A DNA stretch of 38,456 nucleotides, taken from assembly GCA_030819375.1 (NCBI GenBank), contig GCA_030819375.1_4699.1. One strand, given 5' to 3'. The notes under the pieces are model-generated. The model saw only the letters and a program-made list of their open reading frames with translations. It had not been told where the DNA came from and did no database searches. Numbering within the stretch: position 1 is the first letter of the stretch; every line of letters begins with the position of its first letter. Shown in pieces: positions 3,233 through 24,375 of this stretch. The translations under genes were made by a program, and so were the position numbers. The DNA comes from a phage.

Positions 3233-5860
3233 ATGAAAGATTTATACGAAACCCAACTCATGTTAGAGGAAGAGATGTTCTCTGGTGGTATCCGTCGCTT
3301 TGAAGCGGACCAACAACGCCAGATTGCATCCGGTAATGAATCAGACACGGCATGGAATCGCCGCCTATTGTCTGAGTTAATCGCACCTATGGCTGAAGGT
3401 ATTCAGGCATACAAGGAAGAGTATGAAGGTAAAAGAGGCCGTGCACCGCGTGCATTAGCTTTCATTAACTGCGTAGAAAACGAAGTGGCAGCATATATCA
3501 CGATGAAAATCGTTATGGATATGCTGAACACGGATGTAACCTTGCAGGCTATAGCCATGAATGTAGCTGACCGCATTGAGGACCAAGTACGTTTTAGCAA
3601 GCTGGAAGGTCACGCCGCCAAATACTTTGAGAAAGTTAAGAAGTCACTTAAGGCAAGTAAGACTAAATCATATCGCCATGCGCACAACGTAGCGGTCGTG
3701 GCTGAGAAGTCAGTAGCTGACCGTGACGCTGATTTCTCTCGCTGGGAGGCGTGGCCTAAAGATACCTTGCTACAAATCGGGATGACCTTGCTAGAAATAC
3801 TGGAAAATAGTGTATTCTTCAATGGTCAGCCTGTCTTTCTTCGCACCTTGCGCACTAATGGTGGCAAGCATGGCGTTTACTACTTACAGACTAGCGAACA
3901 CGTGGGTGAATGGATAACTGCATTTAAAGAGCACGTAGCTCAGCTGAGCCCAGCCTATGCGCCTTGCGTGATTCCTCCTCGTCCGTGGGTGTCACCTTTT
4001 AATGGCGGTTTTCACACTGAGAAGGTGGCAAGCCGTATTCGTCTGGTTAAAGGTAACCGCGAGCACGTCCGCAAGCTGACCAAAAAGCAAATGCCAGCGG
4101 TTTACAAGGCTGTTAACGCCTTACAAGCTACTAAGTGGCAGGTTAACAAGGAAGTATTGCAGGTAGTAGAAGATGTTATTCGTCTAGACCTCGGTTATGG
4201 TGTACCTTCCTTTAAGCCGCTCATTGACCGCGAGAACAAACCAGCTAACCCTGTTCCTCTTGAGTTCCAGCACCTGCGAGGCCGTGAACTTAAAGAGATG
4301 CTAACGCCGGAACAATGGCAAGCCTTCATCCACTGGAAAGGTGAATGTACCAAGCTGTATGCCGCTGAAACTAAGCGCGGCAGCAAGTCGGCGGCAACCT
4401 TTCGCATGGTCGGGCAGGCCCGTAAATACAGCCAGTTTGACGCAATATACTTCGTGTATGCACTGGACAGCCGCTCACGCGTTTATGCGCAATCTAGCAC
4501 ACTCTCACCGCAATCAAATGACTTAGGCAAGGCTTTACTACGCTTTACCGAAGGGCAAACCATAAACAGCACTGAGGCGCTTAAGTGGTTTTTGGTGAAC
4601 GGGGCAAATAACTGGGGCTGGGATAAGAAAACTTTTGACGTGCGTACCGCTAACGTGCTGGATGGCGAATTTCAAGACATGTGCCGCGACATTGCAGCCG
4701 ACCCGCTGACCTTCACTCAATGGGTAAATGCTGATTCCCCTTATGGCTTCCTTGCATGGTGCTTTGAATATGCGCGTTATCTGGATGCACTGGACGAAGG
4801 AACGCAAGACCAATTCATGACGCACCTACCCGTCCATCAAGATGGGAGTTGCTCTGGTATCCAGCACTATAGCGCGATGTTACGCGATGAAGTAGGTGCG
4901 AAAGCAGTAAACCTTAAGCCTTCTGACTCCCCTCAAGATATTTATGGCGCGGTTGCGCAGGTTGTTATCCAGAAGAATTACGCCTACATGAATGCAGACG
5001 ATGCAGTGACTTTCACATCCGGAAGCGTCACACTTGCAGGTGCAGAACTGCGTAGCATGGCTAGTGTGTGGGATATGATAGGAATCACTCGCGGCCTGAC
5101 CAAAAAGCCCGTAATGACCCTACCTTATGGCAGCGCACGTCTAACCTGCCGTGAGTCAGTGATTGATTATATCGTTGATTTAGAAGAAAAAGAGGCCCAA
5201 CGAGCTATTGCGGAAGGGCGTACCGCCAATCCTGTACATCCTTTTGATAATGGCCGTAAGGACAGCCTGACACCTGGCGCAGCTTATAACTATATGACAG
5301 CTTTAATCTGGCCTTCTATTTCGGAAGTGGTTAAAGCTCCTATAGTGGCAATGAAAATGATTCGTCAGCTTGCCCGTTTCGCAGCTAAAAGGAATGTAGG
5401 CTTAGAGTATACCTTGCCTACTGGCTTCATCTTGCAACAAAAGATAATGGCGACAGATATGCTCCGCGTATCTACTTGCTTGATGGGAGAAATCAAGATG
5501 AGTCTACAGATTGAAACGGACGTAGTGGATGAAACGGCTATGATGGGCGCTGCTGCTCCTAACTTTGTGCATGGTCATGATGCCAGCCACCTTATCTTAA
5601 CAGTCTGCGACCTTGTTGATAAAGGGATTACATCTATCGCAGTCATTCATGATTCTTTCGGTACTCACGCAGGTCGTACAGCCGATCTACGTGATAGTCT
5701 AAGGGCAGAAATGGTGAAGATGTATCAAGGCCGTAATGCATTGCAAAGCCTGCTAGATGAGCACGAAGAACGCTGGTTAGTTGATACTGGAATCCAAGTG
5801 CCAGAGCAAGGAGAGTTTGACCTTAACGAAATCTTAGTATCTGACTATTGCTTCGCATAA
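3233..5860 (+). CDS. Single-subunit DNA-dependent RNA polymerase (T7 gene 1 family), 875 aa
   Basis: Length and C-terminal ...[13 protein letters not shown] resemble the T7 RNAP terminus (recalled ...NLRDILESDFAFA); conserved palm motifs; matching promoters throughout the window. Confidence 0.97.
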
Positions 5861-5953: not shown

Positions 5954-5976
5954 ATTTACCGGACACTATAGGATAG
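5954..5976 (+). promoter_or_regulatory. Phage-RNAP promoter (ATTTACCGGACACTATAGG)
   Basis: Matches the recurring consensus; predicted +1 G at 5971. Confidence 0.75.
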
Positions 5977-9488: not shown

Positions 9489-9596
9489 ATGAATAACTAC
9501 GACTCTGATTGGGATTTCCAAGATTCAATGCAACCTAAACCAGAAAGGAGGGAGGATGAGTTCGAAACAGATCAAATGTACGAGGATTTTTACTAA
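9489..9596 (+). CDS. Small acidic hypothetical peptide (35 aa) overlapping the HNH start
   Basis: GGAGG RBS 9 nt upstream of ATG 9489; MNNYDSDWDFQDSMQPKPERREDEFETDQMYEDFY. Confidence 0.3.
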   Translation: MNNYDSDWDFQDSMQPKPERREDEFETDQMYEDFY

Positions 9597-10035
9597 CTAC
9601 ATCCTCTACTCTGATGGTCGAGTTCTTAACGAGAAAACAGGGCAATACCTAAGAGGTTACTTAGATAAGGATGGGTATCATATTATGAATATTAAAGGGA
9701 AACACCTTAAAGTTCATAGATTAGTTGCTACTCATTTCATACCTAACCCTAATAATTTACCTGAAGTTAACCATAAAGATCATGACCGTCTAAATAATAA
9801 TGATTGGAATCTAGAGTGGTGTACTCATCAAGATAACAACAAGCATAGTTTGCATTTAGTGATAGCTTCTTGTGCTAAACGCTATGACTTTATATCACCA
9901 CAGGGCGTCCATGTAGAAGTCTATAACCTACGTGAATTTTGTAGGAATAATAACCTACAACAATCTCATATGGTTAAGGTAGCTAAAGGTAAAGTAAGAC
10001 ATCATAAAGGTTGGACTAATTATGCTAGATGTTGA
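9556..10035 (+). CDS. HNH homing endonuclease (159 aa)
   Basis: KVHRLVATHFIPNP...EVNHKDHDRLNNNDWNLEWCTHQDN motif; GGAGGGAGG RBS; sits directly upstream of and overlapping the DNA polymerase start. Confidence 0.85.
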   Translation: MSSKQIKCTRIFTNYILYSDGRVLNEKTGQYLRGYLDKDGYHIMNIKGKHLKVHRLVATHFIPNPNNLPEVNHKDHDRLNNNDWNLEWCTHQDNNKHSLHLVIASCAKRYDFISPQGVHVEVYNLREFCRNNNLQQSHMVKVAKGKVRHHKGWTNYARC

Positions 10036-12568
10036 TTGGAAAGAATTTGGAAAGAATCGCATACTTGTCATGGATGCTGAAAGTAAAGGTCTGCTTGATG
10101 CTATTCGCTATGGTCATCGCGAAGACGTGCACATCATTTGCTGCATGGACTTGCTCACTACCGAGGAGTTCCTATTCTTCGACCCATATGAGATGCGTGA
10201 CCCTGAGGCAAGGGAACGCCTGAAGGAGTGGGAAGGCCATCAAGACGGAACCTTGGTTGATGGTGTTAACTTCCTGAAGCATTGTGAAGCTATTGTGTCA
10301 CAGAACTTCCTAGGATATGACGGTCTTCTCTTTGAGAAAGCATTCCCTGATATTTGGAAAGGCTTTAACTATACCGAGAAGCGCGGTAAGGGCAGACTCC
10401 GTGCTGACCTGTGTCCGGTGCGAGTCATGGATACGCTGGTGATGAGTCGCCTGTTAAACCCCGATAGACGCCTTCCTCCGCAAGCATATGCCAAAGGTAT
10501 GGGTAACGTCGCCCCTCACTCAATTGAGGCGCACGGCATCCGTATAGGTCGCTATAAACCGGAGAACGAGGACTGGTCTAAACTAACTGACCACATGGTT
10601 CACCGTGTACGTGAGGACGTGGCGATTGGTCGTGACTTGTTCCTCTGGCTCTTTAACGGGGAATGGATGGAGCACAAACGCCGTGGCGTGAATAAACGCA
10701 CGGGCCTAGGCATTGAGACAGCCTTCCACATGGAGTCCATTGTGGCGCTGGAGATGAGCCGTCAGGCCGAGCGCGGGTTCCGTCTGGACATCGACAAGGC
10801 TTTGGCCCGATGCGAAGAATTGGACGCTAAGATTGATGAGACAGTCGCAGCGTTCCGCCCTCACATGCCTATGCGTATCAAGTCTAAACCTTTTAAACCG
10901 GAAGAAAAGAATGAAGTATGCCAACGCGCAAATGAGTATGGAGCTAGCAACAATATACCTACTGTCCTTGACCCCTCACACTTTCTTCATGCCGAGAGAC
11001 GAGGAGATCGCAAGACAGTATGGAGTGTCACTACTAAGTCTGGTGATTGGTCGGCTAGTGTCAAGAAAGACTTTCCTCACCTTAGAGGAAACCGTAATGA
11101 CACGCCAAGCATCAAGTGGATTGGCGCTTACTCGCCTGTTACTTTCGAAGAGATTCCCTTGGGTAACAGGGATACAGTTAAGCAAGTGCTCTATGATTAT
11201 GGATGGAAAGGTGCTGAATTTAACGATACCGAGCAAGCGCATCTCGATGAGTACGGAGTGTTACCCAAACCTTGGAGTGGTAAGATAAATGAAAAGTCCC
11301 TTACTTTATGGCAAGAAAGAGCCGCACGTGAAGGTAAAACAGTCCCTGATTGGTGCTTGGGTATCGCTGCATGGTACATACTCGTATCCCGTCGTGGTCA
11401 GATACTCAACCGTGGTGACGTTGAAGCCTTCAACGAGAAGGGAACGTGGCCCTCGCAGGCTGGTGTACGAAAGTGTCGCGGCCTTGTACCTGTAGCATTC
11501 AACAAGGAGCTAGGAATCAATGCGCAGCAATACTACGAGAGGTACGGATGTTGGCCTACGTCTGACAAAGATGACGGAGAGTGGCGTGTTCCAGCTGTTG
11601 CTATTAGCATTGGCACTTCTACGTTCCGTATGCGTCATCGTAACGTGGTCAATATTCCTGCCCGTGGCTTGTATCCTTTACGTGATTTATTCATAGCAGG
11701 GAAAGGCAAGCTAATCCTTGGTTGTGACGGTGCAGGTCTTGAACTGCGTGTCCTGTCTCACTTCATGAATGACCCTGAGTACCAAGAGATTGTACTGCAC
11801 GGTGATATTCATACGCATAACCAGATGAAGGCTGGTCTTCCTAAGCGTGATATGGCGAAGACGTTTATATACGCCTTCCTCTATGGCTCTGGTATAGCCA
11901 ACCTTGCAGCAGTATGTGGTGTTACTGAGGAAGAAATGAAGGAAGTTGTGGCAAGATTCGAGATTGAACTGCCGTCTCTTGCACGTCTTCGTGAGAATGT
12001 TATCGCACAAGGTAACAAGTTTGGCTACCTGCAAGCACCTGATGGGCATTGGGGTCGCATCCGCATGTCTGGTGGTGAACTTAAAGAGCACACGATGCTT
12101 AACGTATTACTCCAGATGACTGGCTCTTTGTGTATGAAATATGCATTAGTCAAGGCATTTGCAGTAATGCGCAAGGAAGGTGTAGCCTTGGACGCTATGG
12201 GAAATCCTTGTGGTGTGGCTAACGTGCATGATGAAATCCAGATGGAAGTTCCTGAAGAGGAGGTCTTGTATCTTAACTACGACCTACCTTTCACCTTAGA
12301 TGGGTTCGAAACAGAGAAGGCTGCCGTGCAAGCAGTGTTCGATGCAGAGGAGAAACGTGTTCATGTGGATTCTGAAGGACGTATGTGGTCTGCTGCAAAC
12401 CTCGTTAGTGTTGATGCTGATGCTGGTGTATTGCATTGCCAGCGCCGTTATCACCGTGCAGGTCATATCATTGCCGACGCCATGACTTGGGCAGGGCAGT
12501 ATCTGAAGATGCGTTGCCCGATGGCAGGCGAATATAAGATTGGCGCAAGTTGGAAGGAAACACACTGA
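10022..12568 (+). CDS. DNA polymerase, family A (T7 gp5-like), 848 aa
   Basis: Exo I motif ILVMDAE, motif B KTFIYAFLYGSG, motif C VHDEIQ; size close to what I recall for SP6-type polymerases. Confidence 0.95.
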   Translation: MLDVDWKEFGKNRILVMDAESKGLLDAIRYGHREDVHIICCMDLLTTEEFLFFDPYEMRDPEARERLKEWEGHQDGTLVDGVNFLKHCEAIVSQNFLGYDGLLFEKAFPDIWKGFNYTEKRGKGRLRADLCPVRVMDTLVMSRLLNPDRRLPPQAYAKGMGNVAPHSIEAHGIRIGRYKPENEDWSKLTDHMVHRVREDVAIGRDLFLWLFNGEWMEHKRRGVNKRTGLGIETAFHMESIVALEMSRQAERGFRLDIDKALARCEELDAKIDETVAAFRPHMPMRIKSKPFKPEEKNEVCQRANEYGASNNIPTVLDPSHFLHAERRGDRKTVWSVTTKSGDWSASVKKDFPHLRGNRNDTPSIKWIGAYSPVTFEEIPLGNRDTVKQVLYDYGWKGAEFNDTEQAHLDEYGVLPKPWSGKINEKSLTLWQERAAREGKTVPDWCLGIAAWYILVSRRGQILNRGDVEAFNEKGTWPSQAGVRKCRGLVPVAFNKELGINAQQYYERYGCWPTSDKDDGEWRVPAVAISIGTSTFRMRHRNVVNIPARGLYPLRDLFIAGKGKLILGCDGAGLELRVLSHFMNDPEYQEIVLHGDIHTHNQMKAGLPKRDMAKTFIYAFLYGSGIANLAAVCGVTEEEMKEVVARFEIELPSLARLRENVIAQGNKFGYLQAPDGHWGRIRMSGGELKEHTMLNVLLQMTGSLCMKYALVKAFAVMRKEGVALDAMGNPCGVANVHDEIQMEVPEEEVLYLNYDLPFTLDGFETEKAAVQAVFDAEEKRVHVDSEGRMWSAANLVSVDADAGVLHCQRRYHRAGHIIADAMTWAGQYLKMRCPMAGEYKIGASWKETH

Positions 12569-14709: not shown

Positions 14710-14732
14710 ATTTACTGGACACTATAGAAGAG
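14710..14732 (+). promoter_or_regulatory. Phage-RNAP promoter (ATTTACTGGACACTATAGAAGAG)
   Basis: Perfect consensus; +1 G at 14727. Confidence 0.85.
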
Positions 14733-15212: not shown

Positions 15213-15246
15213 GCCCTGTCTGCCTTAGTGTAGGCAGGGTCTTTTG
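15213..15246 (+). terminator. Intrinsic terminator (paralog of the post-capsid terminator)
   Basis: gccctgtctgccttagtgtaggcagggtcttttg: GC-rich hairpin then TCTTTTG; near-identical architecture at 24342. Confidence 0.7.
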
Positions 15247-15271: not shown

Positions 15272-15556
15272 ATGCCGACTATTGAAGAACGTTTCCTGAT
15301 TCACGTAAGCTTCTCTCCCATACATCTTGGTTATCTTATCACTATTCTATTAGGTGAAGAGATTTATCTGCATAACTACTTAATACCAGAGTATGTATGC
15401 CGTCGAGATAAGATACACCCTGCTAATTGGGCGAAGGAGTGGTTGCGTGAACATGTGCTGAAGGAGTGGCCTACATGCGACCAAACTTCGACTTCGGAGC
15501 TACAGTATCGGAAGACAATAATCTCATCCTGTGGCCAACTGAAGGTAATCGAATAG
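15272..15556 (+). CDS. Hypothetical protein (94 aa), overlaps the exonuclease start
   Basis: GGAGAG RBS; ORF track. Confidence 0.4.
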   Translation: MPTIEERFLIHVSFSPIHLGYLITILLGEEIYLHNYLIPEYVCRRDKIHPANWAKEWLREHVLKEWPTCDQTSTSELQYRKTIISSCGQLKVIE

Positions 15557-16503
15557 CTTTAATAGACGCTGATATGCTACCTTACATCATCGGGTATACA
15601 ATCAGTGAAATGACTTATGTACGAGCTACAACTCGTGTTAAGTCAGGACAAGTCCCATCAATCAAAGATACCCCTGAGTGTAAGCAAGCGTGTGACCGTG
15701 TGAACTCCTTGCTTAACTCTTGGGTGTATGCAGCAGAGTGTGATGCAGCTAAGTTATTCATGACGAAATCAGAAGCTAACTTCCGTGTTCGCCTAGCCTT
15801 CACCAAGCCTTATAAAGGTCAACGTAAGACCGAGAAGCCTCCGTTCTTCTATGAATTGCGAGAGCATCTCTTAGAGGTTCATGGTGCAATCTTGGCAGAT
15901 GGAGAAGAGGCTGATGACCTCATGAGCATTGCACAATGGGACAGCCACCGCCGCTTCCAGCAAGATACAGGTAACGAGTTCCCTATCGGTAGTCCAGAGC
16001 ATAAAGCATTCTCTGATACTTGCATCGTTTCATTGGATAAGGATTTGATGATTGTTCCCGGTTGGCACCTTCAGCCGGGACAAGAGAAGAAATGGGTAGA
16101 GCCTATGGGTTGGCTTGAGTTACGCCGTAAGGCTAATGGTCAGGTTAAAGACCTTAAAGGTGCTGGCCTCATGTTTCATTATGCACAGATGATTATCGGT
16201 GATGATATTGATAACTATGCTGGCATACCTGGACGTGGTGCTAAATATGCCTATGACCTTCTCAAAGATTGTAAGACAGAGAAAGGGTTGTACATGGCAG
16301 TGCTTGGTGCTTACAAGGCTAAGTTCGGACATGGACAAGTTAAGATTAAGAATTACCGAGGTGGTTATCGTATCGGCAAGGCTTTTGACCTGATGCTCGA
16401 ATGTGGTCGCCTAGCTCACATGGCAAGATTCAAAGGTGATATATGGCGAGCCGATAAGAACCCAATCTTGTGGGGAGATGATGCGGAATGGTTAGCAAAT
16501 TAA
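15475..16503 (+). CDS. 5'-3' exonuclease (T7 gp6-like)
   Basis: IALIDADMLPYII aligns with T7 gp6 ILVMDGDWLVF; ATG 15475 has AAGGAG 8 nt upstream (track start 15466 is GTG with no spacer). Confidence 0.9.
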   Translation: MRPNFDFGATVSEDNNLILWPTEGNRIALIDADMLPYIIGYTISEMTYVRATTRVKSGQVPSIKDTPECKQACDRVNSLLNSWVYAAECDAAKLFMTKSEANFRVRLAFTKPYKGQRKTEKPPFFYELREHLLEVHGAILADGEEADDLMSIAQWDSHRRFQQDTGNEFPIGSPEHKAFSDTCIVSLDKDLMIVPGWHLQPGQEKKWVEPMGWLELRRKANGQVKDLKGAGLMFHYAQMIIGDDIDNYAGIPGRGAKYAYDLLKDCKTEKGLYMAVLGAYKAKFGHGQVKIKNYRGGYRIGKAFDLMLECGRLAHMARFKGDIWRADKNPILWGDDAEWLAN

Positions 16504-16898
16504 AATCATCGGAGGTAGCAGCTTATAAGAGGGAATTGCTAGAGAAGCAAGGATGGAAGTGCCCCCTATGTGGCGGCAGTCTCAAGGCTGTTACTCCTAT
16601 AAACCGTGTACTTGACCATGACCATGAGACAGGATTCTGCCGTGCTGTTGTATGCCGAGGCTGCAATGGTGCAGAAGGAAAGATTAAGGGTGTTATCTCT
16701 GGTTATGGTAAGGCTGGTAACAACCGTTACTTCCAGCTTCAATGGTTAGAGCGACTATATGAATACTGGAAGTTACATAGTACGCCTCAGACAGATAAGT
16801 TATATCACAAACACCAAACGGAGGCAGAGAAGCGCGAGGCTAAGAACCGTAAGGCACGCCTTGCTTATGCAAGAAAGAAGGAGGTTAAAGTTGGGTAA
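16488..16898 (+). CDS. Endonuclease VII-type Holliday junction resolvase (136 aa)
   Basis: CPLCGG...LDHDHETGFCRAVVCRGCNGAEG matches the T4 endo VII zinc-binding/H-N-H signature. Confidence 0.9.
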   Translation: MVSKLKSSEVAAYKRELLEKQGWKCPLCGGSLKAVTPINRVLDHDHETGFCRAVVCRGCNGAEGKIKGVISGYGKAGNNRYFQLQWLERLYEYWKLHSTPQTDKLYHKHQTEAEKREAKNRKARLAYARKKEVKVG

Positions 16899-17898
16899 GC
16901 TTCGCAGCTTGTACAAAGACTCCGAGGTACTTGATGCAATCGAGCAAGCTACCGACGAGAAAGGTAATGTTAATTACAATGAGATGGCACGTGTATTATC
17001 GTGTCACCCTGTGGGTAAGAAGATTACCCGCCAGTTGGCTCGATACTGGCATGGTCAATTCAAGAAGACCAAGAAGAATGGTGATTATTACCAGACCCTT
17101 CTGCAAGAAGATAAGCGTATCAAAGAAGAGCGTAAGCTCAGGACTCCTGACCGCTACGAGGATTTGGCTATTGTGCCATTGCCTGACTCGCCTCATCGAA
17201 GTGTACTGGTGATCCCTGATACTCATGCACCTTATGAGCACCCAGATACCCTAGAGTTCCTTGCAGCCGTGGCAGCACGTTACCGTCCAGACACAGTGGT
17301 ACACCTAGGAGATGAGGCAGACAAACATGCCTTGTCATTCCACGATTCGGACCCAAATCTGGATAGTGCTGGCATGGAGTTAGAGAAGGCTCGTATCTTC
17401 ATGCACAAATTGCACAAGATGTTCCCTGTGATGCGCCTGTGTCACTCCAACCACGGCTCTATGCACTTCCGTAAGGCAAGCGCCAAGGGCATCCCTGTGC
17501 AATACCTGCGCACCTACCGTGAAGTTTTCTTCCCGCAGGGAGGTGGCGACCAGTGGGATTGGCAGCATACGCACGTCCTTGAGTTGCCGAATGGTGAACA
17601 AGTGGCATTCAAGCATCAACCTGCTGGCTCTGTCCTAGCAGATGCAGCGCATGAGCGTATGAACCTAGTGTGTGGTCACTTGCACGGTAAGATGTCTGTG
17701 GAGTACGCACGTAATACACATGAACAGTATTGGGCTGTGCAAGGTGGCTGCTTAATTGATGAGTCATCCCGTGCATTTGCCTATGGTCGTGAGTCTAAAT
17801 ACAAGCCAGCATTAGGTTGTGTGGTCATTCTGGAGGGTGTGCCTCACATTGTCCCGATGCAAACCAATAGCGACAACCGTTGGATTGGCAAGATTTAG
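16891..17898 (+). CDS. Calcineurin-like metallophosphoesterase (start uncertain: TTG 16891 preferred over ATG 16867 or track start 16759)
   Basis: Motifs VIPDTHAPY, LGDEADKH, CGHLHG; AGGAGG 6 nt upstream of TTG 16891, which overlaps the endo VII stop. Confidence 0.75.
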   Translation: MGKLRSLYKDSEVLDAIEQATDEKGNVNYNEMARVLSCHPVGKKITRQLARYWHGQFKKTKKNGDYYQTLLQEDKRIKEERKLRTPDRYEDLAIVPLPDSPHRSVLVIPDTHAPYEHPDTLEFLAAVAARYRPDTVVHLGDEADKHALSFHDSDPNLDSAGMELEKARIFMHKLHKMFPVMRLCHSNHGSMHFRKASAKGIPVQYLRTYREVFFPQGGGDQWDWQHTHVLELPNGEQVAFKHQPAGSVLADAAHERMNLVCGHLHGKMSVEYARNTHEQYWAVQGGCLIDESSRAFAYGRESKYKPALGCVVILEGVPHIVPMQTNSDNRWIGKI

Positions 17899-17914
17899 TT
17901 GACACTATAGAACA
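17893..17914 (+). promoter_or_regulatory. Phage-RNAP promoter (ATTTAGTTGACACTATAGAACA)
   Basis: Consensus copy overlapping the upstream stop; +1 G at 17910. Confidence 0.7.
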
Positions 17915-17998
17915 AAGGGCTAGGTAAGACTTTATCGGCTGGCGTATCCAAATGATATTGCACTAGCCCTTGATTGCATAGTGAATGGAGGATTCAAT

Positions 17999-18151
17999 AT
18001 GTCACACTATGAATGTAAGAAGTGTCATAAGCGTTATGATTACTGTACTTGTGGTCAAGAGAAAACATCTTTTAAAGTTGGAGACAAGGTATTTCGTAAT
18101 GAAAAAAGATTCGATTCCTTGGAATCAATACTGCAAAGAAGCTGGTATTGA
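17999..18151 (+). CDS. Small zinc-ribbon-like protein (50 aa; CxxC...CxC)
   Basis: GGAGG 8 nt upstream of ATG 17999; MSHYECKKCHKRYDYCTCGQ...; the track ORF 17985 has no RBS. Confidence 0.4.
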   Translation: MSHYECKKCHKRYDYCTCGQEKTSFKVGDKVFRNEKRFDSLESILQRSWY

Positions 18152-18503
18152 CCCTGATAGCCCTGTAACCATAGATGATATTGATGGCATTAACTTGTGC
18201 TTTCGTGAGGTGAGGGGTACAGGTTGGGATTCCAAAAAATTCAAACTTGCATCTGATAAGTTAGACAACAATATGGTAACTCAGCCTAAGCACTACGAGT
18301 TCTTTGATGGTGTAGAGGCAATCACTATCATTGCCCGCAGTATGACTGAAAAGCAATTCGCTGGGTACTGCATGGGTAATGCCCTTAAGTATCGCCTACG
18401 TGCAGGTAAGAAGTTCAATACTGAAGAAGACTTGAAGAAGGCAGACTATTATAAAGAGTTATTCCAGAAGCATCGTCACGAATGTATTGATGAGGATATT
18501 TGA
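18099..18503 (+). CDS. Conserved phage hypothetical protein (track ORF 17985..18503; ATG 18099 is a plausible start)
   Basis: ORF track frame; motif QPKHYEFFDGVEAITIIARSMTEKQFAGYCMGNALKYRLRAGKK reads like a conserved phage domain of unknown function. Confidence 0.55.
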   Translation: MKKDSIPWNQYCKEAGIDPDSPVTIDDIDGINLCFREVRGTGWDSKKFKLASDKLDNNMVTQPKHYEFFDGVEAITIIARSMTEKQFAGYCMGNALKYRLRAGKKFNTEEDLKKADYYKELFQKHRHECIDEDI

Positions 18504-18504
18504 T

Positions 18505-18672
18505 ATGGAAGTTAAATTGTACAGAGGTTACTTTGGCAACTTGTACAAAGTAAGTCGCAAGGGTTCTATATTAACATCCAATGATGAAGGTGCAACTTTA
18601 AGTGCCTATGGTTCTGACTTAGCGTACTTTAAAGAGGCAATAGTCAAAGGTGTGATGAAGGAGGTGAAATGA
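18505..18672 (+). CDS. Hypothetical protein (55 aa)
   Basis: ATG 18505 immediately follows the upstream stop, GAGGA RBS; track start 18487 is TTG. Confidence 0.5.
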   Translation: MEVKLYRGYFGNLYKVSRKGSILTSNDEGATLSAYGSDLAYFKEAIVKGVMKEVK

Positions 18673-19616
18673 ACATCTTCCAATTCCTAGGCCTTCCAGA
18701 AGATCACCGCAATCACCCATTCATGTTGGTGAAACATCGCGGTGAAGTTCCTGAGAAGAAATTAACCTTTCCATGTTATGCACAGGTGAAACGAGATGGA
18801 ATATTCAGTGCTGTTGTGGTGCGTAATGATGGTGTTGTTGCCATCTTTGGTCGTACTGGTAAGAAGCTCGCAAATGTTGAAGCCTTGGAGAAGGCATTTA
18901 GTGTATTTCCTGTCGGGTTGTATCTTGGTGAGTTGCAATCTATGGCTGTTGATGTTTATCTTGAAGCTCTATCAGGAGTGGTAAACCCTAATCGTACCGA
19001 GCCACTTGATTTCATAGGCCAGCAGATTAAAGACAACCTGTATATCGACTTCTTCGATATGTTAACCATTAAGGCATTCCATGATGGATTCACTGATGTT
19101 TCTTATCTCAAACGTTACGATGCTTTACATCGTCGCATCGGCGCTCATCTTAGCGGGTACAACGCTATCCTTCCTATTACTCCTTGCCATAATGAGCGAG
19201 AGGTTGAAGCGTTTGCACAAGCGCAAATAGATGCAGGCCGAGAGGGTGCTGTGTTTAAACTGGACTGTGATTATGAAGCAGGCCACAAAGGTTATCGTCA
19301 GACTAAAGAAGTCCGTAAGGTAACTTATGACCTTACTTGTATTGGCTTTGAAGAAGGCAAAGGCAAGTACAAAGGTAAGGTAGCTAACCTCATTTTCAAA
19401 TGGAAAGGAGGCAAGACAATCAAAGCTATGCTCGGTAAAGGGTGGACTCATGCAGATGCAGAACAGATGTTCCACGATATCAAACATGGTGGACGATTGA
19501 ATGTCATTGGTAAAATCTTTGAAGTCAAAGGTCTTCAGGATTCAAGCAAGGGCAACATTCGTCTGCCCAAAGCGGGAGAATTAAGACATGACAAAGATGA
19601 ACCAGATTTCTTTTGA
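18669..19616 (+). CDS. ATP-dependent DNA ligase (315 aa)
   Basis: Adenylation motif KRDG (YAQVKRDGIF); GAAGGAGG RBS. Confidence 0.9.
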   Translation: MNIFQFLGLPEDHRNHPFMLVKHRGEVPEKKLTFPCYAQVKRDGIFSAVVVRNDGVVAIFGRTGKKLANVEALEKAFSVFPVGLYLGELQSMAVDVYLEALSGVVNPNRTEPLDFIGQQIKDNLYIDFFDMLTIKAFHDGFTDVSYLKRYDALHRRIGAHLSGYNAILPITPCHNEREVEAFAQAQIDAGREGAVFKLDCDYEAGHKGYRQTKEVRKVTYDLTCIGFEEGKGKYKGKVANLIFKWKGGKTIKAMLGKGWTHADAEQMFHDIKHGGRLNVIGKIFEVKGLQDSSKGNIRLPKAGELRHDKDEPDFF

Positions 19617-19803
19617 TTCCATGAAGGCAACTCGTGCAGTTGAGGTGGCAGAGGCTATCTTTGAAACTCTATCCTGTGGCATGGAAGTGCCATATACTTT
19701 ACTTGCTGATGCAGAAGAACTTGGTCTTTCTGTAGAAGCTATCCAAGAGAAGGTTGACGAATTATATGGTACAGACGAAGAAGAAACCTACGATTTCATT
19801 TGA
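19588..19803 (+). CDS. Hypothetical acidic protein (71 aa)
   Basis: ORF track; GGGAGA RBS; overlaps the ligase 3' end. Confidence 0.5.
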   Translation: MTKMNQISFDSMKATRAVEVAEAIFETLSCGMEVPYTLLADAEELGLSVEAIQEKVDELYGTDEEETYDFI

Positions 19804-19936
19804 AGGAATGGAGATGCTTGAGATGATTCTCAAGCCTTCCTCTCCGAAAGTGACTAAGACTCATGAAGAGTTAATCGTAGATGAAGTGAAGCGTTACATT
19901 ATGGATTGTGTTAGAGCACAACTGGTGGTTCAATGA
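19754..19936 (+). CDS. Hypothetical protein (start uncertain, possibly 19814)
   Basis: ORF track; overlaps both neighbours. Confidence 0.35.
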   Translation: MTNYMVQTKKKPTISFEGMEMLEMILKPSSPKVTKTHEELIVDEVKRYIMDCVRAQLVVQ

Positions 19937-20415
19937 TACGTCCAGCTTCCTTCCTAGATATTCCTGAGATTATTAATCTCGGAGACAAGTATGTAGAAGA
20001 AGAAGTCAAGGTAGTGGCACATCATTCTGCGTCGTGGAATGCGGAACAAAGTGCAGCTAACCTATGTGCCTCTCTAATCAGAGATGATTTATTCCTGTGG
20101 GTTGCTGTAGATGAAGGGCAGATTGTAGGCTTCCTGTGGGCTGGTTATCACGACCTAGCACCTTGGACGCCAGTGCGTGTTGCGTCGGATATTCTCTTCT
20201 ATATTGTACCGGAGAAGCGAGGGACGCTACTTGGTATGCGACTAATCAAAGCCTACAAGCAATGGGCTTTTGAGAAAGGGTGTGCTGAGGTACGCATGTC
20301 CATAGCCTCTGGTATTAATGAGGAACGTGTTGGACGTATGTATAGGCGACTAGGCTTTGAGACGTTCGGCACTGTGTATAACTTAAACTTTAAGGAGATA
20401 ACATGGGTGTCGTGA
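19933..20415 (+). CDS. GNAT-family N-acetyltransferase (160 aa)
   Basis: Acetyl-CoA binding signature ...VPEKRGTLLGMRLI... with typical GNAT spacing. Confidence 0.75.
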   Translation: MIRPASFLDIPEIINLGDKYVEEEVKVVAHHSASWNAEQSAANLCASLIRDDLFLWVAVDEGQIVGFLWAGYHDLAPWTPVRVASDILFYIVPEKRGTLLGMRLIKAYKQWAFEKGCAEVRMSIASGINEERVGRMYRRLGFETFGTVYNLNFKEITWVS

Positions 20416-20612
20416 AGAAGGCATTTAAAGCAATTGGTCTTGCACCTGATACGCCGAAAATTGAGGCAGCGAAAGTGCCAGCACAACAATTAGAACGTCA
20501 ACCTGAGACGGAAGCGGAAGATGTGACGCTGGGTAAGGATGAGGACACCACAACTACTTCTCGTGGTAAGCGTGGTTTAGTTCGCCCTGTAGCATCAAGC
20601 TTAGGAGTATAA
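20403..20612 (+). CDS. Small virion/morphogenesis protein, T7 gp6.7-like (69 aa)
   Basis: Position immediately before portal; composition and ...SRGKRGLVRP resemble T7 gp6.7 (...SGRKGLKVER) as recalled. Confidence 0.5.
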   Translation: MGVVKKAFKAIGLAPDTPKIEAAKVPAQQLERQPETEAEDVTLGKDEDTTTTSRGKRGLVRPVASSLGV

Positions 20613-20616
20613 TATA

Positions 20617-22164
20617 ATGCAAGACACCGACCTTGAGTATGGTGGTAAGCGGTCGAAGATACCTAAGCTCTGGGAGAAGCTATCTACTAAGCGTAACCCT
20701 TTCATAGACAGGGCAAAGCACTATGCTAGGTTGACTTTGCCTTATCTCATGAATGAGGAGGGAGACAACAATACCTCTCAGAATGGGTGGCAAGGTGTAG
20801 GTGCTCAGGCCACTAACCACTTGGCTAACAAGTTAGCGCAAGTTCTCTTCCCGGCTCAACGCTCTTTCTTCCGAGTAGACTTGACAGCAAAAGGGGAGAA
20901 GATATTAAACAACAGAGGTCTTAAGAAGACCAAATTAGCTACGCTGTTTGCTCAAGTAGAGACTGCTGCTATGAAGCAATTAGAGCAGCGGCAGTTCCGC
21001 CCAGCGGTGGTGGAGTGCTTCAAGCATTTGATTGTTGCTGGCAACTGTATGTTGTACAAGCCAAGCAAAGGTGCAATCAGTGCTATACCTATGCATCACT
21101 ATGTAGTGAACAGGGACGCCAATGGTGAACTACTGGACATTATCTTACTACAAGAGAAGGCACTCAAGACATTTGACAACGCAACTCGCATGGCTATTAA
21201 AGTAGGCATGAAAGGTAAGAAGTGTAAGGACAGTGATAATGTAAAACTCTACACACACGCCAAGTATGAGGGTGAAGGTTTTTGGGAATTAAAGCAATCA
21301 GCAGATGATATTCCTATTGGTGAATCTAGCAGAATCAAGGCTGATAAACTCCCATTCATCCCTCTTACTTGGAAGAGGTCGTATGGGGAAGACTGGGGTC
21401 GCCCTCTTGCAGAGGATTATTCTGGGGATTTATTCGTAATCCAATTCCTGTCCGAAGCAGTTGCACGTGGCGCTGCTTTGATGTCCGACATTAAATACCT
21501 GATTCGTCCAGGTGCTCAGACAGATGTAGACCATTTTGTTAACTCGGGAACGGGTGAAGTAATCACTGGCGTGGAAGAGGACATCCATATTGTACAATTA
21601 GGGAAGTATGCAGATCTAACACCAATAAGTGCGGTGCTAGAAGTTTATACCCGCCGTATCGGCGTAGTCTTTATGATGGAAACCATGACGCGACGAGATG
21701 CAGAACGTGTAACTGCTGTAGAGATACAGCGAGATGCTCTTGAGATTGAGCAGAACATGGGTGGCGTGTATTCCCTCTTTGCTAAGACCATGCAGACTCC
21801 CGTGGCTATGTGGGGTTTGCTTGATGCAGGTGACTCTTTCACTAGTGACCTAGTAGACCCTGTTATCATCACAGGCATTGAAGCGTTAGGTCGCATGGCA
21901 GAGTTGGATAAGCTGGCTAACTTTGCTCAGTATATGGCATTACCTATGAGTTGGCCTGAGCCGGTACAGGCAGCAGTAAACTGGCCGGATTATATGGATT
22001 GGGTTCGTGGTCAGATCTCTGCTGAACTTCCATTCTTAAAGTCAGAAGAGCAGATGAAGCAAGAACAAGCACAGATGGCACAAGCACAGCAAGAGCAGAT
22101 GCTTAATGAAGGAGTAGCTAAAGCTGTGCCGGGTGTCATTCAACAAGAACTTAAGGAGGCGTAA
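20617..22164 (+). CDS. Portal (head-tail connector) protein, 515 aa
   Basis: Size and position before scaffold and capsid; AGGAG RBS. Confidence 0.9.
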   Translation: MQDTDLEYGGKRSKIPKLWEKLSTKRNPFIDRAKHYARLTLPYLMNEEGDNNTSQNGWQGVGAQATNHLANKLAQVLFPAQRSFFRVDLTAKGEKILNNRGLKKTKLATLFAQVETAAMKQLEQRQFRPAVVECFKHLIVAGNCMLYKPSKGAISAIPMHHYVVNRDANGELLDIILLQEKALKTFDNATRMAIKVGMKGKKCKDSDNVKLYTHAKYEGEGFWELKQSADDIPIGESSRIKADKLPFIPLTWKRSYGEDWGRPLAEDYSGDLFVIQFLSEAVARGAALMSDIKYLIRPGAQTDVDHFVNSGTGEVITGVEEDIHIVQLGKYADLTPISAVLEVYTRRIGVVFMMETMTRRDAERVTAVEIQRDALEIEQNMGGVYSLFAKTMQTPVAMWGLLDAGDSFTSDLVDPVIITGIEALGRMAELDKLANFAQYMALPMSWPEPVQAAVNWPDYMDWVRGQISAELPFLKSEEQMKQEQAQMAQAQQEQMLNEGVAKAVPGVIQQELKEA

Positions 22165-23069: not shown

Positions 23070-23092
23070 ATTTACTGGACACTATAGAAGGG
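23070..23092 (+). promoter_or_regulatory. Phage-RNAP promoter upstream of the capsid gene
   Basis: ATTTACTGGACACTATAGAAGGG; +1 G at 23087. Confidence 0.85.
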
Positions 23093-24341: not shown

Positions 24342-24375
24342 GCCCTATCTACCTTGCGTAGGTAGGGTTCTTTTG
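24342..24375 (+). terminator. Intrinsic terminator after the capsid gene (T7 Tphi-like position)
   Basis: gccctatctaccttgcgtaggtagggttcttttg: hairpin then TTCTTTTG. Confidence 0.75.

Follow-up and report, generated by a model that had tools for sequence, protein, structure and literature searches.

Characterised counterparts of the two enzymes treated here come from mycobacteriophages and from the phiKMV-like phage LUZ19. Gp47 of Bxb1, a mycobacteriophage metallophosphoesterase (MPE), is a recombination directionality factor, is needed for replication of the phage DNA and displays weak nuclease activity (PMC11795197). Its homologue Gp48 of phage A10ZJ24 is both a phosphodiesterase and a DNA nuclease, and degrades DNA in vitro and in vivo, including the host DNA (PMC12287305). 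The LUZ19 acetyltransferase Rac (Gp28), when expressed alone, leads to cleavage of the alpha-subunit linker of the host RNA polymerase and shuts off transcription, for which its acetyl-CoA pocket is needed (PMC7552054). Here, a phage DNA of 38,456 nucleotides (contig GCA_030819375.1_4699.1, the whole of which is called the window) was analysed with regard to an MPE gene at positions 16891-17898 and a gene for a GNAT N-acetyltransferase at 19933-20415. Every long open reading frame (ORF) of the window, including these two, is located on the + strand.

The region of 4.3 kb around both genes is 92-94% nucleotide-identical to approximately 80 phages of Escherichia, Klebsiella and Salmonella that belong to the genus Vectrevirus. 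The window is a Vectrevirus, a coliphage and member of the SP6/K1E/K1-5-like Autographiviridae (Molineuxvirinae). SP6/K1-5-type phages are used in phage therapy and serve as a source of SP6 RNA polymerase, and the leads given here concern two of their last uncharacterised conserved enzymes. Both genes are intact and, as such, already known, with annotations in GenBank for K1E, SP6, VEc3 and dozens of close relatives. A preliminary description of this DNA had called both ORFs and their gene families correctly, and was also right in stating that the substrates of the two enzymes are unknown. It had presented them as auxiliary enzymes; they are conserved, syntenic accessory genes of SP6-like phages instead of sporadic cargo, with homologues in 643 (MPE) and 254 (GNAT) phage records, the latter all from Autographiviridae with genomes of about 45 kb.

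The best joint explanation, to which a probability of about 0.45 is given, is that the MPE belongs to the replication and recombination module and has DNA as the substrate of its nuclease or phosphodiesterase activity, and that the GNAT acetylates a host protein during takeover. DNA is the most likely substrate of the MPE because of several elements taken together, namely the profile link to gp47, the DP1 and Mre11 nucleases as nearest folds, an N-terminal module in common with phiKMV-type exonucleases, fusions to DNA-binding domains and the replication-module context; the reaction itself would be that of an exonuclease, of an endonuclease or of end processing. The common N-terminal module, the recurrent DNA-binding fusions and the profile link to the replication-essential gp47 family are modestly new.

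The metallophosphoesterase and its family

The start codon of the MPE gene, a TTG, is preceded at a distance of 7 nt by a Shine-Dalgarno sequence (AAGGAGG), and the gene overlaps the end of the endonuclease VII gene, stop codon included, by 8 nt. The same coding sequence of 1008 bp is annotated as 'metallo-phosphoesterase' in VEc3 (gp26) and KMB14. The protein of 335 residues matched PHROG 221 with an E-value of 4e-105, and Pfam Metallophos (PF00149) at a borderline score (21.7 bits for a threshold of 21.5). The catalytic domain (aa ~100-335, positions 17188-17898) displays five motifs, D110-T-H112, G140-D-E-A-D144, S186-N-H188 (with Ser for Gly), H242 and G262-H-L-H265, which are invariant across 34 homologues with identities down to 48%. 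The five motifs and the alpha/beta sandwich fold place the protein in the calcineurin-like superfamily. This binuclear metallophosphoesterase domain has an active site that is complete, and metal-dependent hydrolysis of phosphoesters is predicted from it. Directly after motif II, the domain contains a loop (aa 144-161, positions 17320-17373) with the sequence DKHALSFHDSDPNLDSAG, which is almost invariant in the family, stand-alone homologues included, and which was modelled by AlphaFold2 (AF2) with a local confidence score (pLDDT) below 50. This loop is a family-specific element, possibly for the binding of the substrate or of an extra metal.

No sequence match to the MPE was obtained in PDB at E<=1. 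The folds nearest to it are the exonuclease DP1 (the small subunit of archaeal PolD), the phosphodiesterases YfcE/MJ0936 and Mre11, and DP1 and Mre11 are also the top structural neighbours of gp47 (PMC11795197). DP1, Mre11/SbcD and YfcE/MJ0936 differ from the window protein in sequence (12-16% identity), and the latter has neither the OB domain of DP1 nor a PolD partner, neither the capping domain of Mre11 nor a Rad50/SbcC partner. Profile comparison with hhalign aligned the MPE with Bxb1 gp47 over 191 columns, corresponding to the whole catalytic domain, with a probability of 84% and an E-value of 7.5e-6. This beats the control alignment with the lambda protein phosphatase (81 columns, motifs I-III only, probability of 6.5%), but stays below the level which would prove a specific subfamily. 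Like the window MPE, the MPEs of cluster A mycobacteriophages (Bxb1 gp47, L5 gp54 and A10ZJ24 Gp48) display the five motifs, and their genes lie in the replication module close to those for DNA polymerase, primase and endonuclease VII. In contrast, they share about 21% identity with it, are shorter (~255 aa), and lack both the N-terminal domain and the invariant HALSFHDSDPNLDSAG loop. The role of gp47 as recombination directionality factor is irrelevant for the window MPE, since the phage is lytic and has no integrase.

When the catalytic domain (aa 100-335) was searched against the full library, 1683 clusters at 50% identity (E<=1e-3) were obtained. Among the best 150 representatives, 88 are stand-alone catalytic domains, and the other 62 are extended at the N-terminus by at least 45 residues. 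Analysis of the extended proteins with Pfam identified canonical HTH domains, with HTH_23 in 11 of them (best E 3e-8), HTH_psq in three (3.5e-10) and HNH_repeat, a DNA-binding repeat associated with homing endonucleases, in another three cases (4.6e-13), together with HTH_38, HTH_SB, HTH_28, HTH_3, MarR_2 and others. With the exception of one LAGLIDADG intein, all recognisable added domains are DNA-binding, and no sensor, regulatory or protein-phosphatase-type partner was detected by Pfam in these 62 proteins. Four long homologues (P0324, P0325, P0292 and P0283, 512-635 aa) display large insertions at or beside motif II (GDE|C...), with LAGLIDADG in P0324. These insertions are apparently inteins that split the active site. 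Inteins typically sit in conserved sites of important DNA-metabolism proteins.

The genes of the MPE family were always found in the replication module, in every context examined. In Pseudomonas phage Njord, an MPE with 49% identity is encoded after endonuclease VII. A metagenomic contig (L006) encodes a homologue at 73-1071, two small ORFs ahead of the gene for a family A DNA polymerase. In the KP34-like Klebsiella phage AttikonH5 (L007), the homologue (4821-5855) lies between the DNA polymerase, behind which come a small ORF and a gp5.5-like gene, and the single-stranded DNA-binding protein (SSB); in KP34-like phages, it does not follow endonuclease VII as it does in the window. The preliminary description had placed both genes among replication genes. 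This holds for the MPE, which is encoded in a row with the 5'-3' exonuclease and endonuclease VII, while the GNAT gene lies at the boundary of the module and is the last one ahead of a small virion protein and the portal.

An N-terminal module in common with phiKMV-type exonucleases

In LUZ19, the exonuclease (gp22), endonuclease VII (gp23) and gp24 are encoded in the same order as in the window, with gp24 in the slot of the MPE. The gp24 protein of phiKMV and LUZ19, annotated as 'DNA polymerase exonuclease subunit', has an RNase_H_2 catalytic domain (PF13482) of the RNase H/DnaQ-like type, the fold of which is unrelated to that of the MPE. Its N-terminal ~55 residues, however, are homologous to the N-terminal domain of the MPE.

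In the MPE, approximately 95 residues precede the catalytic domain, with helices predicted by AF2 at residues 10-20, 29-37 and 47-57. An N-terminal helical domain (aa 1 to ~65, positions 16891-17085) is supported by a domain hidden Markov model (HMM), the joint alignment A3 and the AF2 helices, and shows the motif R-x-x-F/Y-[TK]-[DN]-x-E-V ... L-S ... G-x-x-[VI]-[ST]-R-Q-L-A-R-Y-W. The domain is called helix-turn-helix (HTH)-like on the grounds of its helix pattern and motif, because no Pfam or PDB family matched it significantly. The HMM was built from the first 75 columns of the MPE-family alignment and was run against 120 proteins of the phiKMV gp24 family, together with 240 reversed or shuffled decoys. 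It matched 79 of the 120 RNase-H-fold exonucleases with a best E-value of 3e-12, to be compared with 1.2 for the best decoy, and all matches preceded the exonuclease domain. The 41 short gp24 forms (<=280 aa), which have no N-terminal extension, were not matched. The joint alignment of both families revealed the motif R-x-x-F-T-D-x-E-[VI]..A...A..L-[TS]..G-R-G-x-V-S-[RP]-Q-L-A-R-Y-W.

A catalytic domain of the gp24 type was not found in the window. Together with the HMM matches, this indicates that one small module has been joined to two unrelated nuclease-type folds at the same genomic position, and it looks like the nuclease domain was swapped non-orthologously behind the common module. An assignment of the MPE as the orthologue of LUZ19 gp24 was considered and rejected for the catalytic domain, as gp24 has the RNase_H_2 fold and only the N-terminal domain is in common. 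The presence of the module on both enzymes points to one common docking partner. A wider proposal, which is speculative and rather doubtful, would extend this to the Autographiviridae in general. They would possess a modular replication factor made of an adaptor plus a nuclease, in which an HTH-like module of ~55 residues docking to DNA or the replisome is attached either to an MPE (SP6-like phages) or to an RNase-H-fold exonuclease (phiKMV-like phages) for the same essential DNA-processing step. In the same proposal, the GNAT would be the enterobacterial counterpart of Rac and would shut off host transcription via acetylation-triggered inactivation of RNA polymerase.

The acetyltransferase and the functions considered for both enzymes

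The GNAT gene (19933-20415) encodes a protein of 160 residues, for which the sequence predicts an acetyl-CoA-dependent transferase. The fold of superfamily PF00583 is present (beta1-alpha1-alpha2-beta2-4-alpha3-beta5-alpha4-beta6). The acetyl-CoA loop R96-G97-T-L-L-G101 is a variant of the consensus Q/R-x-x-G-x-G/A that lacks the glycine at +3, and the family does not conserve G101. This variant is probably tolerated because binding runs through backbone amides. Across the family, four residues (R96, Y90, D86 and E119) are invariant and G97 is almost so, and position 136, usually a tyrosine, is occupied by Y or F. Homologues are encoded by SP6, K1E, Era103, phages of Vibrio, Aeromonas, Pseudomonas and Marinomonas, and Roseobacter phage SIO1, and where examined the gene has a constant position, directly before the small virion protein and the portal. 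The 3' end of the gene (20383-20415) displays a 1-nt deletion in comparison with VEc3 and KMB14, three codons ahead of the usual stop. The deletion turns ...YNLKF* into ...YNLNFKEITWVS*, so that the last 10 residues are altered or extended, and produces an overlap of 13 nt with the downstream gene for a 69-aa protein. The extra C-terminal tail was modelled with pLDDT below 50.

Rac and the window protein are both single-domain GNATs of ~157-160 residues. Each is encoded last before a small virion protein and the portal and overlaps the former gene, and the LUZ19 order gp28, gp29, gp30 parallels that of GNAT, 69-aa protein and portal in the window. The upstream neighbourhood differs, with the RNA polymerase in phiKMV and the ligase in the window. 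Homologues of Rac also occur in gh-1-type Pseudomonas phages, beside a 'tail assembly / host range' gene. In a comparison of Rac with 38,880 PHROGs, the only match besides its own family was phrog_1249 (E 4.9e-4), to which the window GNAT belongs; in the reverse direction, the window GNAT does not match phrog_3986 of Rac at E<=1e-3. An inhibitor of the host RNA polymerase of the T7 gp2 or gp0.7 type was not recognised in the 10 uncharacterised early and middle ORFs which were scanned, all of them belonging to PHROGs of 'unknown function'. This is compatible with a Rac-like GNAT, as a weak indication. By analogy, a Rac-like acetyltransferase for host takeover is the most economical reading of the gene, at low confidence.

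In the joint explanation, the MPE would be a metal-dependent exo- or endonuclease on DNA, anchored on DNA or on the replisome through the N-terminal module. Its partners would be endonuclease VII, encoded next to it and translationally coupled, and the 5'-3' exonuclease, and its task would be the processing of replication or recombination intermediates, or the breakdown of host DNA. The GNAT, whose gene is transcribed from the promoter at 17902 in one unit with the upstream ligase and the downstream portal, would acetylate a host protein at the switch to late functions. Several observations weigh against this explanation. The N-terminal domain of the MPE gave no significant match in Pfam or PDB, with only scattered weak hits to HTH_8 and HTH_Tnp_1, and a literature search on the function of the MPE or GNAT of SP6, K1-5 and Vectrevirus returned nothing. 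The DNA polymerase of the window (10022-12568) keeps its own exonuclease motifs of the DEDDh type, D-x-E (18-20), N-x3-Y-D and H-x4-D. On the side of the GNAT, the GNAT of LKA1, encoded at the same position, does not cause cleavage of the alpha subunit (PMC7552054), so that this phenotype of Rac is genus-specific even within the Krylovirinae. BLASTP detected no similarity between the window GNAT and Rac, hhalign gave an E-value of 0.08, and a Foldseek search of BFVD revealed no specific link, the top matches being the own family and generic phage GNATs. In PDB, the sequences that match the GNAT best belong to acetyltransferases for small molecules, namely PA4866 and phosphinothricin/methionine-sulfoximine acetyltransferases (E ~3e-5). 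The polymerase motifs also bear on a further candidate role, that of a trans-acting proofreading subunit for a polymerase devoid of exonuclease. This role of the MPE was rejected, as trans proofreading is unlikely and unneeded when the polymerase retains these motifs.

Three other functions were considered for the MPE. Hydrolysis of nucleotides or signalling molecules had been put forward in the preliminary description, and would correspond to an anti-defence enzyme cleaving second messengers of host immunity (cyclic oligonucleotides, cyclic nucleoside monophosphates or ADP-ribose derivatives). This is improbable and less supported than an action on DNA: PADLOC gave no match, the fusion partners are DNA-binding instead of sensor or nucleotide-binding domains, the N-terminal module is in common with phiKMV-type exonucleases, the nearest folds are DP1 and Mre11, and the nearest characterised relative by profile, gp47, is a replication-linked nuclease. 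Moreover, phages of many host genera conserve the gene, within the constant setting of the replication module, unlike the typical variable cargo of anti-defence genes. The neighbourhood of a DUF3310 'nucleotide kinase' and a ligase brings up end healing, in which the MPE would serve as 3'-phosphatase or 2',3'-cyclic phosphodiesterase, in a heal-and-seal system of the Pnkp type or in a damage-response cluster like that of PdeM and ligase. Such a role is also unlikely, as a phage promoter divides the MPE gene from the kinase-ligase unit and the MPE gene of KP34-like phages does not adjoin a ligase. The PdeM match reached 19 bits for a cutoff of 150 bits, and the Pnkp-type match ranked below those to DP1 and Mre11. 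Finally, the annotation 'protein phosphatase 2A-like' in AAPEc6, Vc1 and Tola would make the MPE a Ser/Thr protein phosphatase, which is very improbable. The signatures GDxHG, GDxVDRG and GNHE of the PPP family are absent, PDTHAP, GDEADKH and SNHG being found instead, and for this reason the 'PP2A-like' name in GenBank records is unsupported. In addition, the profile match to the lambda phosphatase was restricted to motifs I-III at 6.5% probability, and the family is fused to DNA-binding domains. The widespread annotation is thus misleading.

For the GNAT, the preliminary description had left the choice between a host protein and a small molecule. Acetylation of a host protein is plausible by analogy and stays a live option because of the precedent of Rac (PMC7552054). 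A small-molecule substrate (polyamine, amino-acid analogue, aminoglycoside-like compound or nucleotide-sugar) in place of a protein is a rival possibility of rather low likelihood. It is favoured by the best PDB matches, which beside PA4866 and the phosphinothricin/methionine-sulfoximine N-acetyltransferases include SSAT2 and AAC(6') (E 3e-5 to 4e-3), and by NCBIfam matches to the AAC(6') and ArsN1 families, all of which are far under their cutoffs. The position of the gene suggests yet another target, the virion or assembly proteins, with N-terminal or lysine acetylation of the 69-aa virion protein, portal, scaffold or internal proteins. In SP6-like, phiKMV-like and gh-1-like phages the GNAT gene always adjoins, and often overlaps, the first structural gene. 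In the window it is co-transcribed with portal and scaffold, no promoter being present between 17902 and 23079, and the fold of the protein is as similar to the Ard1/Naa N-terminal acetyltransferases as to other GNATs. A literature search, however, found no report of acetylated virion proteins, and Rac without other phage proteins exerts its effect on the host (PMC7552054); a virion target is rated as unlikely.

Gene order, transcription units and neighbouring genes

The gene order of the window is of the SP6 type, with Ocr, RNA polymerase, primase-helicase, DNA polymerase, exonuclease, endonuclease VII, the region studied here, portal, scaffold and capsid. The run which contains the MPE gene is opened by a T7 gp6-like 5'-3' exonuclease (15466-16503; Pfam 5_3_exonuc, annotated as 'exonuclease' in VEc3 and KMB14), followed by the junction-resolving endonuclease VII (16488-16898; Pfam Endonuclease_7, E 1.5e-12). 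A phage RNA polymerase promoter, GATTTAGTTGACACTATAGAACAAAG, is located at 17888-17913 and is conserved in VEc3 and KMB14. Its upstream part overlaps the last codons of the MPE gene, and its conserved core ACACTATAG begins at 17902, 4 nt past the MPE stop, from which it follows that the MPE gene closes the run of exonuclease, endonuclease VII and MPE.

Ten matches to the K1E-type phage promoter (ATTTACTGGACACTATAGAAG-like) were identified on the + strand of the window, with cores at 5963, 8230, 8921, 13110, 13573, 14719, 17902, 23079, 36316 and 38421. The next promoter upstream of 17902 is thus that at 14719, and a terminator-like hairpin (15213-15240) separates the two; a second strong hairpin of this kind lies at 24342-24368. 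The unit starting at 17902 comprises the DUF3310 gene, the ligase, small ORFs, the GNAT, the 69-aa protein, portal and scaffold, up to the capsid promoter at 23079. Promoters and hairpins together delimit the predicted transcription units of the window.

Within this unit, the DUF3310 protein (17999-18503), called 'nucleotide kinase' in relatives, is frameshifted. Its true start is the ATG at 17999 (MSHYECKKCHKRYDYCTCG...), and a run of A residues at 18102-18107 contains an extra A (A6 here for A5 in VEc3 and KMB14). The frame stops at 18151, and the remainder is read in the frame of an ORF at 17985-18503. Either an error in sequencing the homopolymer or a recent mutation that inactivates the gene could account for this frameshift. 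Taken together, the indels of the DUF3310 and GNAT genes suggest that the assembly may carry indel errors. The ATP-dependent DNA ligase (18669-19616) was recognised by Pfam DNA_ligase_A_M and OB_2. Downstream of the GNAT gene, the protein of 69 residues (20403-20612; PHROG 9033, and PHROG 1320 'host range and adsorption protein') is encoded by the first gene of the structural module and, from the LUZ19 map, corresponds in position to LUZ19 gp29 and to T7 gp7.3-type proteins. The region ends with the portal or head-tail connector (20617-22164), annotated as head-tail adaptor or collar in relatives.

Two further genes lie outside this region. A homologue of Ocr, the DNA mimic with anti-restriction function, is encoded in the early region at 1294-1662 (Pfam ocr, E 1.7e-41). 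An HNH endonuclease ORF at 9556-10035, with HNH_3 and an I-HmuI NUMOD-like tail, reaches 14 nt into the gene of the DNA polymerase and is probably a homing endonuclease.

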